Source: a virus
Lineage: Duplodnaviria; Heunggongvirae; Uroviricota; Caudoviricetes
Strand: one strand, 5' to 3'
DNA: 4,692 bases
IMG/VR virus record: IMGVR_UViG_2778261344_000007
Coordinates: 1-4,692 of that record
The notes beneath the pieces were generated by a model. The model did no database searches and was not told where the DNA came from. It saw only the letters and a program-made list of their open reading frames with translations. Positions 1,381-4,463 of the stretch are shown piece by piece. Each line of letters begins with the position of its first letter. The stretch's first letter is position 1. The position numbers were made by a program, and so were the translations under genes.

Positions 1381-2127
1381 TTACTTCTCAATACCTGGCT
1401 GACCAACATTCGGGCGCCAGCTCTCCCAGTTAAAATTCACCCAGCGCCCGCCGTTCATGGTCATGCGATCCATAATCCGCTCGCCGAGCAATGTTTTCAT
1501 GGCCTCATAGTTCAGGTTTGTCAGCATCCCCACGCTGCGCATTGACGCTGTCCGGCGATCAACAATCTGGTGCAGTACCACCTGCTCGTTTTTCGTCTCG
1601 CGCTGAATACCAATTTCATCAAGAACCAGCAGATCAACTTCGCACAGTTCCCGCAAAAATTTTTCGCCTGACTGCCCGTCGTCATAGCTGGCGTGCAGGG
1701 CGCTCATAACATCAGCCACGGTAACCACAATCACTGTCTGGCCATCTTTCAGCAGGCGATTCCCGATAGCCGCCGCCAGATGGTTTTTTCCGGTACCAGG
1801 TTTTCCGCTGAACGCGAAATTTGTGCATCCGGTAACCAGTTCGTCAGCGATAGATTTCGCCTGACTCAACGCGTATCGCTGGCCGTCGTTCTGCACCTGG
1901 TAATTCGCAAACGAGCATTTGCGGTGCAACGGCTGTATGCCGGAGCGATTCAGGATTTTTTCCACCCGCAACTGACGATTCTGACGGTTGATCTCCTCAC
2001 AACGTTTCTGGCCTTCTGCAAGTTGCCACTCGCGCCACTCCGCCACCGTCCTGAATGGCGCGGTTACATGTGGCGGGGCCAGTCTGCGGATACGTTCCAG
2101 AACGCCGCCTGTCGCAATATTTTTCAT
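1381..2127 (-). CDS. ydaV: DnaC/IstB-like AAA+ ATPase, putative replicative helicase loader (lambda P analogue by position)
   Basis: 248-aa ORF with Walker [12 protein letters not shown] and Walker [10 protein letters not shown] readable in translation. ATG 2125-2127 with AGGGGG upstream; starts 6 nt after the ydaU stop. Length and context match Rac prophage YdaV as I recall it. Confidence 0.88.
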
Positions 2128-2133
2128 GGTCTG

Positions 2134-2922
2134 TTACCCCCTGAAGCCTGGCGGGATCGCACTGTCCGGAAACGAGACGGTGTTAATCTGTCGGAGCAAC
2201 GTCTCTGGCCGAACACCTTTCGGCGCGAACAAGCCCTGGTATTCATTGGCGATGCTGTGTCGAATCACCTGCTCAGGTGAAAAACCCTGCTGGCGGAATT
2301 TTTCCAGCTCCCGTATCGCCCCGTTAGCGCCCTGCTCCGTTCGAATCGGTTTTCGCAATGCCTGCCTGAACTGAACCCACTCATGCCAGAGTGTTTCCGG
2401 CAACCAGTCAGGCAGCTCGATAGCCTCCGGTTCGAATTTTTTAGACGCTCGTTTTTGGCGAGGGGGATTTAGGGGGAGATAAGTATTTATATCTTCCTCT
2501 TTCTCTTCCTCTGGTAACGCTTTTTGATCCGTTTTTGTAACGCTGGCAGCGTTACCTTTTCGTTTCAGTTCTCGTATTTTTGTTACTCTCTCGTTTGTAA
2601 CCGCCCGTTTTTTAGAGCTTTTCCCGTTATGGCGCTCAAAGTTAGGAAGCGACAACACACCATTAGTTTCGACCAGCCATCCAACCTGAATTAACGCATC
2701 AGCAAAACCAGCCATAAAAGTGATGCGATCTATTGCACTTTTTGTAACGCCGCGAGCGTTACACTCTGCGTTACCGTCTATCATTTGTTGATCCGCCCAT
2801 GCCCAGAAGCGAATGACTTTCCCTAATGCGGCATCTGGATCAATATTCAGAATCTCAGCAAGCCTGAATATTTCCGGCTTATCCGGCGTAATAACTTCGA
2901 GCTTTATCCAGTTTGAAGCCAT
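2134..2922 (-). CDS. ydaU: putative replication initiation protein, YdaU family (lambda O analogue by position)
   Basis: 262-aa ORF, ATG 2920-2922 with AGGTGA about 7 nt upstream. Two-domain layout with a charged low-complexity linker (KSSKKRAVTNERVTKIRELKRKG...EEEKEED) whose coding DNA carries the palindrome/T-tract cluster. Lies directly upstream of the DnaC-like gene. Symbol assigned by synteny and length class, not by search. Confidence 0.8.
   Translation of the reverse strand: MASNWIKLEVITPDKPEIFRLAEILNIDPDAALGKVIRFWAWADQQMIDGNAECNARGVTKSAIDRITFMAGFADALIQVGWLVETNGVLSLPNFERHNGKSSKKRAVTNERVTKIRELKRKGNAASVTKTDQKALPEEEKEEDINTYLPLNPPRQKRASKKFEPEAIELPDWLPETLWHEWVQFRQALRKPIRTEQGANGAIRELEKFRQQGFSPEQVIRHSIANEYQGLFAPKGVRPETLLRQINTVSFPDSAIPPGFRG
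2514..2622. other. candidate replication origin: cluster of GTAAC/GTTAC half-sites with T-tracts inside the ydaU linker-coding DNA
   Basis: GTAAC at 2514, 2537 and 2597, GTTAC at 2551 and 2582; T4-T6 runs at 2521, 2532, 2557, 2577, 2608 and 2619. Just upstream lie GGGGGATTTAGGGGGAG (2462-2478) and an AT-rich/polypyrimidine stretch (2479-2510). Confidence 0.35.
2536..2556. repeat. palindrome copy 1: TGTAACGC-TGGCA-GCGTTAC (inside ydaU, codons 123-130 GNAASVTK)
   Basis: Arms of 8 bp read directly; the reverse complement matches. Confidence 0.85.
2743..2763. repeat. palindrome copy 2: TGTAACGC-CGCGA-GCGTTACA (inside ydaU, codons 54-61 CNARGVTK)
   Basis: Perfect 8-bp arms, 5-bp centre, read directly. 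Confidence 0.85.
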
Positions 2923-2964: not shown

Positions 2965-2986
2965 TACCGAACAAAACAGTTCGGTA
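2965..2986 (-). other. hairpin TACCGAAC-AAAACA-GTTCGGTA in the ydaT-ydaU spacer (8-bp stem, 6-nt loop, no U-tract)
   Basis: Perfect 8-bp inverted repeat read directly; lies between the ydaT stop (3000) and palindrome copy 3. Confidence 0.4.
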
Positions 2987-2999
2987 CGATTAATTTCAA

Positions 3000-3422
3000 T
3001 CAATGCACTACGACAGAATCGCTAGGAGAACCGCCGCCGCTGAAATGTGCTTTACGGTAAACGGCCTGGACTGCATCATCATGCGCATCAATTGCCGTAC
3101 TCAGTGCATCCTGTGCCGCCAGTAATGCACGGCGTTCCAGGGTATCGAAGATGCAGAGTCGGTGACGCAGCTCGCGAGGAAGAATTGCCAGAACCGCAGG
3201 GATCAGTTTCTGAATTTTTTCCCTTTGCGCATTCGTTTCACCTTTCAACCAACGATGATAGATATTCTGCTGATTGTTCCAGTCCTTGCCTGGTACCAGG
3301 GGCAATTCGCCGCCCCCCTGGCGCAGATATTCTTCAGTAATTGCGTTAGCGACCCACGCCTGCCCTTTTTCGGCTGCCAGGGCTAACAACACTGATTCGA
3401 TGTGCTCATGCTTGATTTTCAT
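3000..3422 (-). CDS. ydaT: YdaT-family protein (CII-like regulator of Rac-type prophages; historically annotated as a toxin)
   Basis: 140-aa ORF beginning MKIKHEHIESV..., which I recognise from memory as YdaT of the E. coli Rac prophage (unverified). ATG 3420-3422 overlaps the ydaS TGA 3419-3421 (ATGA coupling); GGGAG lies 7-8 nt upstream. Confidence 0.88.
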   Translation of the reverse strand: MKIKHEHIESVLLALAAEKGQAWVANAITEEYLRQGGGELPLVPGKDWNNQQNIYHRWLKGETNAQREKIQKLIPAVLAILPRELRHRLCIFDTLERRALLAAQDALSTAIDAHDDAVQAVYRKAHFSGGGSPSDSVVVH

Positions 3423-3429
3423 GAATCAA
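3412..3429. promoter_or_regulatory. perfect inverted repeat TTGATT-N6-AATCAA centred on the ydaS stop / ydaT start overlap
   Basis: TTGATT 3412-3417, ttcatg 3418-3423, AATCAA 3424-3429, read directly. A weaker relative (ACGATT-N6-AATCAA, 2986-3003) overlaps the ydaT stop. Confidence 0.4.
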
Positions 3430-3673
3430 CTCCCATCAGCTTTTTCGTAGTAGTTTTATTTCTGCCAATAGTTAAAATTGCATCGGCAGAAAATAATCCG
3501 TTTGATGCATGAGCGATTTTTTCAGCGTAATTTGTTTCGCCGGTATATTCTGTGCGAGGCAATTTACCGTTATCCATCCATTTGTAGATTGCTCTTTGGC
3601 TGACACCACAAACGTCGGCCACAACAGAAACGCGAACAGTTTTGATTACATCTTCAAGTGTTTTCTGGTTCAT
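3419..3673 (-). CDS. ydaS: Cro-like small HTH regulator (YdaS-like), 84 aa
   Basis: ORF-track frame 3419..3745; start placed at ATG 3671-3673 (MNQKTLEDV...) because GAGGGTGA lies 5 nt upstream, whereas the ATG at 3745 has no RBS and sits inside the repressor promoter. HTH-like segment VADVCGVSQRAIYKWMDNGKLP. First gene of the operon, divergent from the repressor. Symbol by synteny. Confidence 0.75.
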   Translation of the reverse strand: MNQKTLEDVIKTVRVSVVADVCGVSQRAIYKWMDNGKLPRTEYTGETNYAEKIAHASNGLFSADAILTIGRNKTTTKKLMGVDS

Positions 3674-3697
3674 ATCACCCTCACAATGTGAACTTTG

Positions 3698-3732
3698 AGT
3701 ACATGCTATAACAGAACTGACAGTACATTCAA
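3698..3732 (-). promoter_or_regulatory. candidate early-right promoter (PR-like) for the ydaS operon: -35 TTGAAT (plus 3727-3732), 16-bp spacer, extended -10 TGtTATAGC (plus 3705-3713)
   Basis: Read on the minus strand; would give a leader of about 25 nt containing the ydaS RBS. The -10 is imperfect (ends in C). Confidence 0.4.
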
Positions 3733-3753
3733 GAGCGAATATCATTGAACTTA
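3717..3753 (+). promoter_or_regulatory. candidate repressor-maintenance promoter (PRM-like): -35 CTGACA 3717-3722, 17-bp spacer, -10 TATCAT 3740-3745; predicted start at or beside the racR ATG (leaderless mRNA)
   Basis: Hexamers and spacing read directly; the -10 ends 7 nt before the ATG at 3753 and no RBS is present. Lambda cI mRNA from PRM is leaderless (established), which gives a precedent. Confidence 0.45.
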
Positions 3754-4172
3754 TGGTTCATGAAGATAAAGCGCGTAAAGAGTTCGCCAGTAGGCTTGCG
3801 CTAGCCTGTGAAAACGCTGGTTATGAACAACATGGAAGGCAGGCAGAAATTGCCCGTCGAATGAAATTAACACCAAAAGCGGTTAGCAAATGGTTTAATG
3901 GTGAAACAATTCCTCGCCGAGAGAAATTAAGGGAATTAGCAACACTCATTGGAACAACACCAACCTATCTTTTGGGAGAGGATACAGAAGAAAGTGGACA
4001 GATACGTTTCTATCAGGAGTTAAATCCAAGACAAAAAATCATCATTGACCTTCTGGACGAGCTCCCTGACAGTGAGACAGATGAACTTTTAAAAACTCTT
4101 GAGGAGAAAAAACAGAAGTACAATGCAATTTACGAAGAGTTAGCACGAAAGAAAAAACAAAAAGCCTCTTAA
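3753..4172 (+). CDS. racR: CI-like prophage repressor, XRE-family HTH with a charged helical C-terminus (RacR-like), 139 aa
   Basis: ORF with HTH segment QAEIARRMKLTPKAVSKWFNGETIPRREKLRELATLIG, divergent from the cro-like gene. No Shine-Dalgarno precedes the ATG at 3753, but a good -10 ends 7 nt upstream. Symbol is positional (racR-ydaS-ydaT-ydaU-ydaV order). My memory of K-12 RacR length differs, so this may be a variant repressor. Confidence 0.8.
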   Translation: MVHEDKARKEFASRLALACENAGYEQHGRQAEIARRMKLTPKAVSKWFNGETIPRREKLRELATLIGTTPTYLLGEDTEESGQIRFYQELNPRQKIIIDLLDELPDSETDELLKTLEEKKQKYNAIYEELARKKKQKAS

Positions 4173-4182
4173 ACCAGCATAA

Positions 4183-4220
4183 ATCCGGTAGCGTCCCCCT
4201 CCGGGTTTGTGCTTCACTTT
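4183..4220 (+). terminator. weak candidate terminator after racR: stem ATCCGG / CCGGGT (4183-4188 and 4201-4206, one G-U pair), 12-nt loop, then T-rich TTGTGCTTCACTTT
   Basis: Hairpin begins 11 nt after the racR stop. The stem is short, the loop long and the T-run interrupted, so this is weak. Confidence 0.25.
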
Positions 4221-4247
4221 ATCCCGTCTCATTTTTTTATACATAAA

Positions 4248-4291
4248 ATGTACTTAAAGTACTTTACAATGATGAACACAAAGTACATTAT
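4248..4291 (+). promoter_or_regulatory. operator/promoter cluster downstream of the repressor (OL/PL-like): inverted site 4248-4262 containing palindrome GTACTTAAAGTAC, direct site GAACACAAAGTACAT 4274-4288, candidate -35 TTTACA 4263-4268 and -10 CATTAT 4286-4291
   Basis: Motif copies read directly. Hexamers are moderate matches with a 17-bp spacer, oriented toward the small ORFs at 4464 onward. Confidence 0.4.
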
Positions 4292-4463
4292 ATACCTACC
4301 AACCCACCCCGCCCCACAGAACGCCGGGCAATACTTCGAGTTACCAGGCAGTGGTCAGGGGTTAAGTAGCCAGCCCGAGGCGTATGAACATGACGGCGGG
4401 ATTCAAATTTTGCAGTGCAGCAGTTAGTTCCGCCACCCGGCGTTAAGGGGAAATGAGGTCAAC

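Follow-up and report, generated by a model that had tools for sequence, protein, structure and literature searches.

The first two genes of the early gene string in the window, meaning the whole 4,692-nt stretch of DNA analysed here, very probably encode a Cro-like and a CII-like regulator of the genetic switch in a Rac-type lambdoid prophage of E. coli, and not a toxin–antitoxin (TA) pair. This reading is built on the gene order, the overlap of the two cistrons, a conserved binding box, repeated operator-like sites, the family memberships of the two products and the modular co-variation of the genes among related loci. The initial annotation had favoured a lysis–lysogeny role over an addiction module, and that preference is now strengthened by the YdaT family membership with its box, by profile matches to Cro proteins and by partner swapping in 92 loci.

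The Cro/CII interpretation is already known from close relatives. It was argued from context by Casjens 2003, as cited in PMC5917428, and the same argument was put forward by Jobling 2018 (PMC5917428). The paaR2/ydaS/ydaT region of CP-933P from E. coli O157:H7 has been characterized in two studies (PMC8630535, PMC9986795; PDB 8BT1, 8C7K). Jurenas 2021 reported that CP-933P YdaS and PaaR2 footprint the same OR/OL operators and that YdaT activates the repressor-directed promoter PRE933P, with the conclusion that the two genes do not form a TA module (PMC8630535), while the YdaT structure was solved and its box mapped by Prolic-Kalinsek 2023 (PMC9986795). The racR-ydaS-ydaT region of K-12 Rac was described by Wons 2025 (PMC11879457), and also by Krishnamurthi 2017 and Bindal 2017. 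The experiments proposed in the initial annotation have thus already been done on homologs (PMC8630535, PMC9986795, PMC11879457), one of which is 94% identical and has a near-identical box. What is new here is the co-variation together with the module map, in which the YdaT box marks the exact point of exchange between immunity cassettes.

The chromosome of E. coli 2013C-3277 contains a sequence 100% identical to the window, as do many other isolates, mostly human or bovine; at least 80% of the window is present in 510 of 5426 complete E. coli genomes. In 2013C-3277 it belongs, by annotation, to a Rac-like lambdoid prophage adjoining ttcA, with xisR/intR, recE/recT and kil on one side and lysis genes on the other, and the frameshifts in recE and intR mark it as a decaying prophage. 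As a lambdoid immunity region of the Rac/CP-933P type the locus is ordinary and common in E. coli, and its immunity type is uncharacterised. Its features are collected in Table 1.

Table 1. Genes, sites and promoter candidates in the window (., no strand assigned; N, any base; promoters given as -35, spacer length and -10, with consensus matches where scored).
Feature	Position	Strand	Basis or remark
ydaV, DnaC/IstB-like helicase loader, P-position gene	1381..2127	-	PF01695 2e-20
O-like replication initiator	2134..2922	-	third cistron; phrog_2509 3e-88
second YdaT-box-like site ACGATTAATTTCAATCAA, uncertain	2986..3003	.	on ydaT stop codon
ydaT, CII-like transcriptional activator (POU-type HTH + tetramerisation helix), 140 aa	3000..3422	-	PF06254, phrog_163
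predicted YdaT box, exact palindrome TTGATT-N6-AATCAA	3412..3429	.	spans ydaS stop and ydaT start
Cro-position gene ('ydaS' by position), 84-aa all-helical HTH protein	3419..3673	-	phrog_35, Cro/YdaS profiles, AF2
exchangeable immunity cassette (Cro-like gene, OR, repressor gene, OL, pL)	3429..4296	.	blastn
OR1-like putative operator GTGAACT-TTG-AGTACAT, 17-bp pseudo-palindrome	3688..3704	.	overlaps pR-like -10
pR-like promoter candidate TTGAAT-18-TAGCAT, 8/12	3703..3732	-	inferred by manual reading; weak, below scan threshold
OR2-like putative operator CAGAACT-GAC-AGTACAT	3712..3728	.	24 bp centre-to-centre from OR1
pRM-like promoter CTGACA-17-TATCAT, 10/12	3717..3745	+	consensus scan; predicted start ~3752-3753
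possible third operator TTGAACT-TAT-GGTTCAT	3745..3761	.	by eye; weaker; spans repressor start and pRM-like transcription start
prophage repressor, 139 aa, HTH_3 N-terminus	3753..4172	+	PF01381 1.8e-9; phrog_5736 1.7e-19
OL-like putative operator ATGTACT-TAA-AGTACTT	4248..4264	.	motif scan
pL-like promoter TTTACA-17-CATTAT	4263..4291	+	consensus scan; overlapped by both OL operators
OL-like putative operator ATGAACA-CAA-AGTACAT	4272..4288	.	24 bp from the OL-like site at 4248..4264

The lambda-like order of divergent repressor, small HTH gene, YdaT and replication genes had been pointed out in the initial annotation, and all of its elements are present. The overlap of the two cistrons can be read directly in the sequence as ATGA at 3419-3422(-), where the stop codon TGA of the small HTH gene (3421-3419) meets the start codon ATG of ydaT (3422-3420). 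The ribosome-binding sequence GAGGGTGAT precedes the ATG of the small HTH gene, and a second one, GGGAG, lies 7 nt 5' of the ydaT ATG. That the pair forms the first two cistrons of a long early operon is borne out by the 2013C-3277 annotation, in which 11 genes, the pair at their head, follow one another on one strand and are nowhere more than 105 nt apart. No terminator-like site belongs to the pair itself, as the sole such site on the minus strand 3' of it, at 435-423, is at chance level and lies within the DUF977 gene. Besides the O-like and P-position genes, DUF1627 and DUF977 genes recognized by profile matches follow ydaT on its strand. An Rfam scan of the entire window at E<=1 gave zero matches, with no oop-like or nut-like RNA family. 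A plus-strand hairpin at 2965-2986 was considered as an oop-type terminator and set aside as weak; its variants in other loci pair better in the minus-strand RNA via G-U.

The product of the second cistron falls firmly within the YdaT family on sequence grounds. PF06254 is its sole Pfam family (43.1 bits against a cut-off of 21, 6e-11), with no Pfam match to Phage_CII, and phrog_163, named 'CII-like transcriptional activator', matches at 5.4e-36. The protein is 94% identical to K-12 Rac YdaT, and the solved YdaT structures 3c4r (1.5e-6) and 8bt1 (1.7e-6; phmmer) align over residues 1-140. In K-12 YdaT, H56 and R57 (with W58) are needed for DNA contact and L107 and A110 for oligomerisation (PMC11879457). 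All five residues are present in the window protein when aligned to K-12 YdaT, and R57 and W58 are invariant across the alignment A1 of YdaT relatives. YdaT is a functional analogue of CII that has no detectable sequence homology to it. By its homologs in K-12 and CP-933P, the window protein would be expected to bind the box and to activate a repressor-directed promoter.

The name 'ydaS' fits the 84-aa protein by position and remote homology, as far as sequence comparison goes, and not by close family membership. It matches the phrog_35 transcriptional repressor at 1.5e-14, and in Pfam neither PF15943 (YdaS) nor P22_Cro (PF14549) matches at E<=0.01; BLASTP against K-12 YdaS gave E=0.028 across 18 residues only. 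A PDB search with the single sequence returned noise only, and the Cro matches required a profile, A4, built from 18 homologs of the protein, which found 5w8y at 3e-5, 3bd1 at 2e-4 and N15 Cro at 0.016. Aligned by hhalign to the YdaS-family profile A5, A4 scored 97.3% with E=2.5e-11. PF15943 is carried by some distant homologs (P0171, P0191, P0193), and some are named Cro. The AF2 model (pLDDT 78) is all-alpha, with five helices and no beta wing, and its top Foldseek match is Xfaso 1 Cro with a target-normalised TM of 0.69, though at weak E-values (best 0.086); CP-933P YdaS (8c7k) and other XRE/Cro domains are also among the matches. Comparison at the profile level clearly groups the protein with YdaS and Cro, and like CP-933P YdaS it would bind OR and OL and repress pRM. 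The Foldseek matches also illustrate that the XRE/Cro fold is common to HTH antitoxins such as HigA.

The divergently encoded 139-aa repressor has no S24 peptidase domain. P22 C2 is its top PDB match, a match to the DicA subfamily (56 bits) stays under the cut-off of that subfamily, and outside the HTH it is unrelated to RacR. The GAAC-N4-AGTACAT operators pointed out in the initial annotation were recovered as three exact copies and one with a single mismatch, at 3690-3704, 3714-3728, 4274-4288 and 4248-4262, where 0.02 would be expected in the window. They can be read as 17-bp pseudo-palindromes of the form aTGaACT-N3-AGTACAT arranged in two pairs, each 24 bp centre to centre, one putative pair between the divergent genes and the other downstream of the repressor gene. 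The predicted transcription start of the pRM-like promoter practically coincides with the repressor ATG at 3753, and no ribosome-binding sequence was found upstream of this ATG, so that the repressor mRNA is probably leaderless; leaderless translation has been shown for lambda cI and PaaR2 (PMC8630535). The folding of the conserved pL leader at 4292-4463 was not significant (z=-1.29).

The predicted YdaT box lies across the junction of the two cistrons. The sequence TTGATTTTCATGAATCAA at 3412-3429 (coding strand TTGATTCATGAAAATCAA) is the sole exact TTGATT-N6-AATCAA in the window, only one base apart from the footprinted K-12 box ATGATTCATGAAAATCAA (17/18 the same; PMC11879457) and equal to the CP-933P consensus (PMC11879457, PMC9986795). 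The form NTGATT-N6-AATCA[AG] was found at the ydaS/ydaT junction in 92/92 related loci from five genera. Across immunity types the left half of the box falls in unrelated upstream sequence, yet the box is kept. In K-12 Rac, where the box covers the ydaT ATG, YdaT binds to it and switches on PracR4, a reverse promoter within ydaS, which raises racR expression (PMC11879457). A strict consensus promoter scan found no reverse promoter within the Cro-like gene of the window, and a relaxed scan of its plus strand gave three weak 8/12 candidates at 3469-3497, 3521-3549 and 3563-3590; since the relaxed scan also misses the experimentally known PracR4 of K-12, promoter prediction cannot settle the matter. 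A further box-like match at the start of the repressor gene (3754-3772) is complementary to the box region at 16/19 positions, but 4/12 half-site mismatches make it a probable coincidence.

The relationship of the two cistrons to their neighbours was followed in 92 loci bearing YdaT relatives, of which a scan of genome contigs gave 10 and most came from close relatives in IMG/VR; for each locus three neighbouring ORFs were extracted, one upstream on the strand of ydaT, one divergent and one downstream. YdaT proteins at least 96% identical occur with three mutually dissimilar families in the Cro position, namely the window type (33 loci), an XRE type (31 loci) and K-12 YdaS (14 loci). The window type is accompanied by one repressor family in 33/33 loci and K-12 YdaS by RacR in 14/14, and the XRE type is found only with two repressor families that merge at a looser threshold. 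The gene in the Cro position follows the repressor and the operators and not YdaT, as a Cro does. Joint inheritance would be expected of a cognate toxin and antitoxin, and the swapping of partners therefore contradicts a cognate TA pair, an argument against the TA reading that is drawn from computation alone.

The borders of the exchanged DNA are sharp. In blastn comparisons with K-12 Rac and two other immunity types, homology ends at 3428-3430 and returns at 4297-4299, and the edges of the cassette are the edge of the YdaT box and a point just beyond the -10 of the pL-like promoter. All the putative operators and pL are inside the swapped 3429-4296, and the cassette contains nothing else beyond both genes. 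In Salmonella, Klebsiella, Raoultella and Lelliottia as well, YdaT is located between a small HTH gene with its divergent repressor and an O-like initiator.

These elements can be assembled into a model of the switch, in which binding and regulation in the window, as well as the position of the reverse promoter, are drawn from the homologous systems. The pair would form the first two cistrons of a rightward early (pR-type) operon. In a lysogen, the 139-aa repressor would be expressed from the pRM-like promoter, probably from a leaderless mRNA, and would occupy the 17-bp operators at OR and OL, silencing both pR and pL. Without repression, transcription from pR would extend through the genes for the Cro-like protein, YdaT, the O-like initiator and the DnaC-like loader and through others, and the Cro-like protein, acting on the same operators, would turn down repressor synthesis. 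Translation of YdaT may be coupled to that of the Cro-like gene through the ATGA overlap, in addition to the use of its own ribosome-binding sequence. A YdaT tetramer would then bind the TTGATT-N6-AATCAA box at the junction and activate a reverse (pRE-type) promoter within the Cro-like gene, giving a repressor mRNA antisense to cro that would favour the establishment or maintenance of lysogeny. Toxicity upon overexpression would be incidental to strong DNA binding by the regulator, and in the case of K-12 YdaT it acts via rcsA activation.

Among the known systems, the window is closest to K-12 Rac, with which it has in common the chromosomal site (ttcA), the prophage type, the near-identical YdaT and box, ydaV, the C-terminal half of the O-like protein and a DUF1391 gene on the pL side. 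The two differ in repressor, Cro-position protein and operators, corresponding to the swapped 868-bp cassette. PracR4 lies within the swapped DNA and is therefore not conserved in the window. Additionally, ydaS and ydaT are separated by a 22-bp gap in K-12 instead of overlapping, the box is a perfect palindrome in the window and not in K-12, and the N-terminal half of the O-like protein differs together with the iterons.

CP-933P resembles the window in its architecture with OR and OL operator sets, in the YdaT fold, in the identical TTGATT-N6-AATCAA box consensus at the ydaS/ydaT junction and in the repressor mRNA, which is likely leaderless in the window too. Its solved YdaT (8bt1) is matched only at the 1.7e-6 given above, and YdaT identity between Rac and CP-933P is ~30% (PMC11879457). 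The window is without the paaA2-parE2 TA genes that follow the repressor in CP-933P, and its operators differ from the GTTTAGTAA-type operators of that prophage.

The parallel with lambda extends from the order and orientation of cI-cro-cII-O-P to the 17-bp operators with a 24-bp spacing of OR1 and OR2, the divergent pR/pRM promoters and the location of pL/OL beyond the repressor gene. In both cases an activator site at the cro/cII junction drives repressor transcription antisense to cro (for the window this would hold by homology), and overexpression of the activator is toxic. YdaT, without detectable sequence homology to CII as noted above, binds an inverted repeat in place of the direct repeat TTGC-N6-TTGC recognized by CII, the window lacks the tR1 gap between the cro and cII positions, its repressor is devoid of the S24 autocleavage domain, and no N gene is evident.

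The pair could alternatively be taken for an autonomous type II TA module, in which YdaT is the toxin and the HTH protein the antitoxin, neutralising YdaT through direct contact and controlling its own bicistronic operon. The layout of two small overlapping genes with the HTH protein first is indeed TA-like, the XRE fold is shared with HTH antitoxins, and PF06254 is still named 'YdaT_toxin' in Pfam and the protein 'toxin YdaT family protein' in RefSeq. The toxicity of overexpressed YdaT mentioned in the initial annotation is confirmed in the literature, where both YdaS and YdaT of K-12 are genuinely toxic when overexpressed (PMC5700377, PMC11879457). However, YdaT is a DNA-binding HTH tetramer with no known toxin fold (PMC9986795), and the window protein matches only the DNA-binding YdaT structures. 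Nearly identical YdaT proteins are combined with three dissimilar upstream proteins that track the repressor and not YdaT, and no self-contained bicistron is present, as ydaT is followed by replication genes with no terminator-like site in between. Christensen-Dalsgaard 2010, as cited in PMC5917428, gave no evidence of TA behaviour, and the conclusion of Jurenas 2021 quoted above was likewise against a TA module (PMC8630535). The TA reading has already been largely refuted, and for the window it is highly improbable. A somewhat better chance, yet still a low one, is given to the view that YdaT is retained chiefly to regulate the host or arrest growth, its cII-like position being a leftover in a decaying prophage. 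K-12 YdaT binds upstream of rcsA and activates it, causing filamentation and a strong host phenotype (PMC11879457), YdaT is very highly conserved among heteroimmune prophages, and the frameshifts in recE and intR speak for decay. Against this view, the junction box is kept in all 92 loci and YdaT activates repressor-directed transcription in both tested systems (PMC8630535, PMC11879457); moreover, the two roles are compatible, so that a host function would add to the switch model and not replace it.

The remaining alternative concerns the first cistron, whose product might be an AlpA/excisionase-type (HTH_17, MerR-like) regulator and no analogue of Cro. It is suggested by a weak Pfam HTH_17 match (22.9 bits, under the cut-off of 27), by a match to the MerR-like phrog_2474 at 9e-5 and by one JGI homolog named 'Prophage CP4-57 regulatory protein (AlpA)'. 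The predicted fold of five helices without a beta wing, the Cro proteins and YdaS as the best profile and fold matches, the place of the gene beside the operator region and its 1:1 co-variation with the repressor all speak for a Cro analogue instead, and an xisR gene is already present beside intR in the prophage. An AlpA-type identity is accordingly given hardly any weight.

With the pair read as Cro-like and CII-like regulators, the toxin label that YdaT carries in databases has a practical consequence, in that automated annotation presents a lysis–lysogeny regulator as a TA toxin; the window is one more clear case for correcting it. A more speculative reading of the module map, held only tentatively, is that the YdaT box serves as a fixed module joint, with one CII-type activator and its site serving at least three dissimilar Cro/repressor/operator cassettes that change places precisely at the edge of the box and at the pL start (4296-4297). 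If so, every cassette must bring its own YdaT-responsive reverse promoter, and the YdaT made by one Rac-like prophage could turn on the repressor gene of another, heteroimmune Rac-like prophage or of a superinfecting phage in the same cell, resulting in cross-talk in lysogeny decisions among heteroimmune phages. As the YdaT proteins of Rac and CP-933P have already been seen to cross-activate (PMC11879457), only the modular or ecological side of this reading would be new.

The replication genes display a second, separate exchange. The match of the O-like initiator to K-12 YdaU is confined to residues 139-262, at 79%, and its N-terminal half forms with the iterons a swapped module of its own, exchanged independently. 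For the uncertain YdaT-box-like site on the ydaT stop codon, 3 core matches were counted against 0.25 expected. This site accompanies the O-gene type of the window and is absent from the K-12 type and from other genera; it was dropped as a part of the core system, as it tracks the O-gene type and is not conserved with ydaT.

The core of the YdaT box, a TTGATT-N6-AATCAA palindrome at the ydaS/ydaT junction recurs in the window more often than chance would predict, with three matches observed against 0.25 expected. The second box-like sequence, at the end of ydaT (see the table), is linked to the type of O gene that the window carries, being absent from the K-12 O-gene type and from the other genera among the loci compared. 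Additionally, the repressor gene opens with seven codons (3754-3772) that are complementary to the YdaT box region (3410-3428) at 16 of 19 positions, and the TTCATG spacer is identical between the two; either YdaT binds weakly here as at a secondary site, or the resemblance is coincidental.

Coordinates and sequences of additional features in the window
Feature	Position (nt)	Sequence	Location or source
Palindromic iteron, three copies	2535-2559, 2742-2766, 2934-2958	TTGTAACGC-N4/5-GCGTTAC	repeat search
Hairpin	2965-2986	TACCGAAC...GTTCGGTA	ydaT/O-like intergenic region
Second YdaT-box-like sequence	2986-3003	ACGATTAATTTCAATCAA	overlaps ydaT stop codon; 426 bp from main box
Repressor C-terminus, containing the motif	4020-4172	~LL-x-LF-x2-LP-x2-E	also in loci L009-L012, L049 and L050
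Non-coding leader	4297-4451		directly downstream of pL-like promoter

The iterons lie within the gene for the O-like replication initiator and just upstream of it, and the region bearing them is probably the replication origin. Relative to K-12 ydaU, the segment 2508-3001, comprising the coding sequence for the N-terminal half of the O-like protein together with the iterons, constitutes a module that has been swapped separately. In two IMG/VR loci, L052 and L062, the O-like initiator encoded downstream of ydaT is lengthened to 378 aa by ~115 extra residues inserted in its central part. The hairpin between ydaT and the O-like gene was scored as terminator-like on the plus strand by a terminator scan, and its variants elsewhere (GCCGGAT...GTTCGGT) retain pairing only through G-U pairs, in the minus-strand RNA.

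The C-terminal motif of the repressor is common to repressors of otherwise dissimilar immunity types. An S24 peptidase domain was found by Pfam in none of the repressors sharing it, which suggests a mode of induction that does not rely on RecA-stimulated self-cleavage.

The leader beyond the pL-like promoter had no match in Rfam, and structure prediction gave it a fold short of significant stability (z=-1.29). Sequence comparison revealed 98.7% identity to the K-12 Rac counterpart between racR and ydaG, while the coding genes flanking the leader fall below that value, at 83-92% identity to K-12 Rac.

Among the loci encoding YdaT relatives, L008 is a 5.2-kb contig in a MAG binned as 'Candidatus Nanosynbacter', whose YdaT shares 94% identity with that of E. 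coli; the contig's presence in that MAG is almost certainly a binning contamination.
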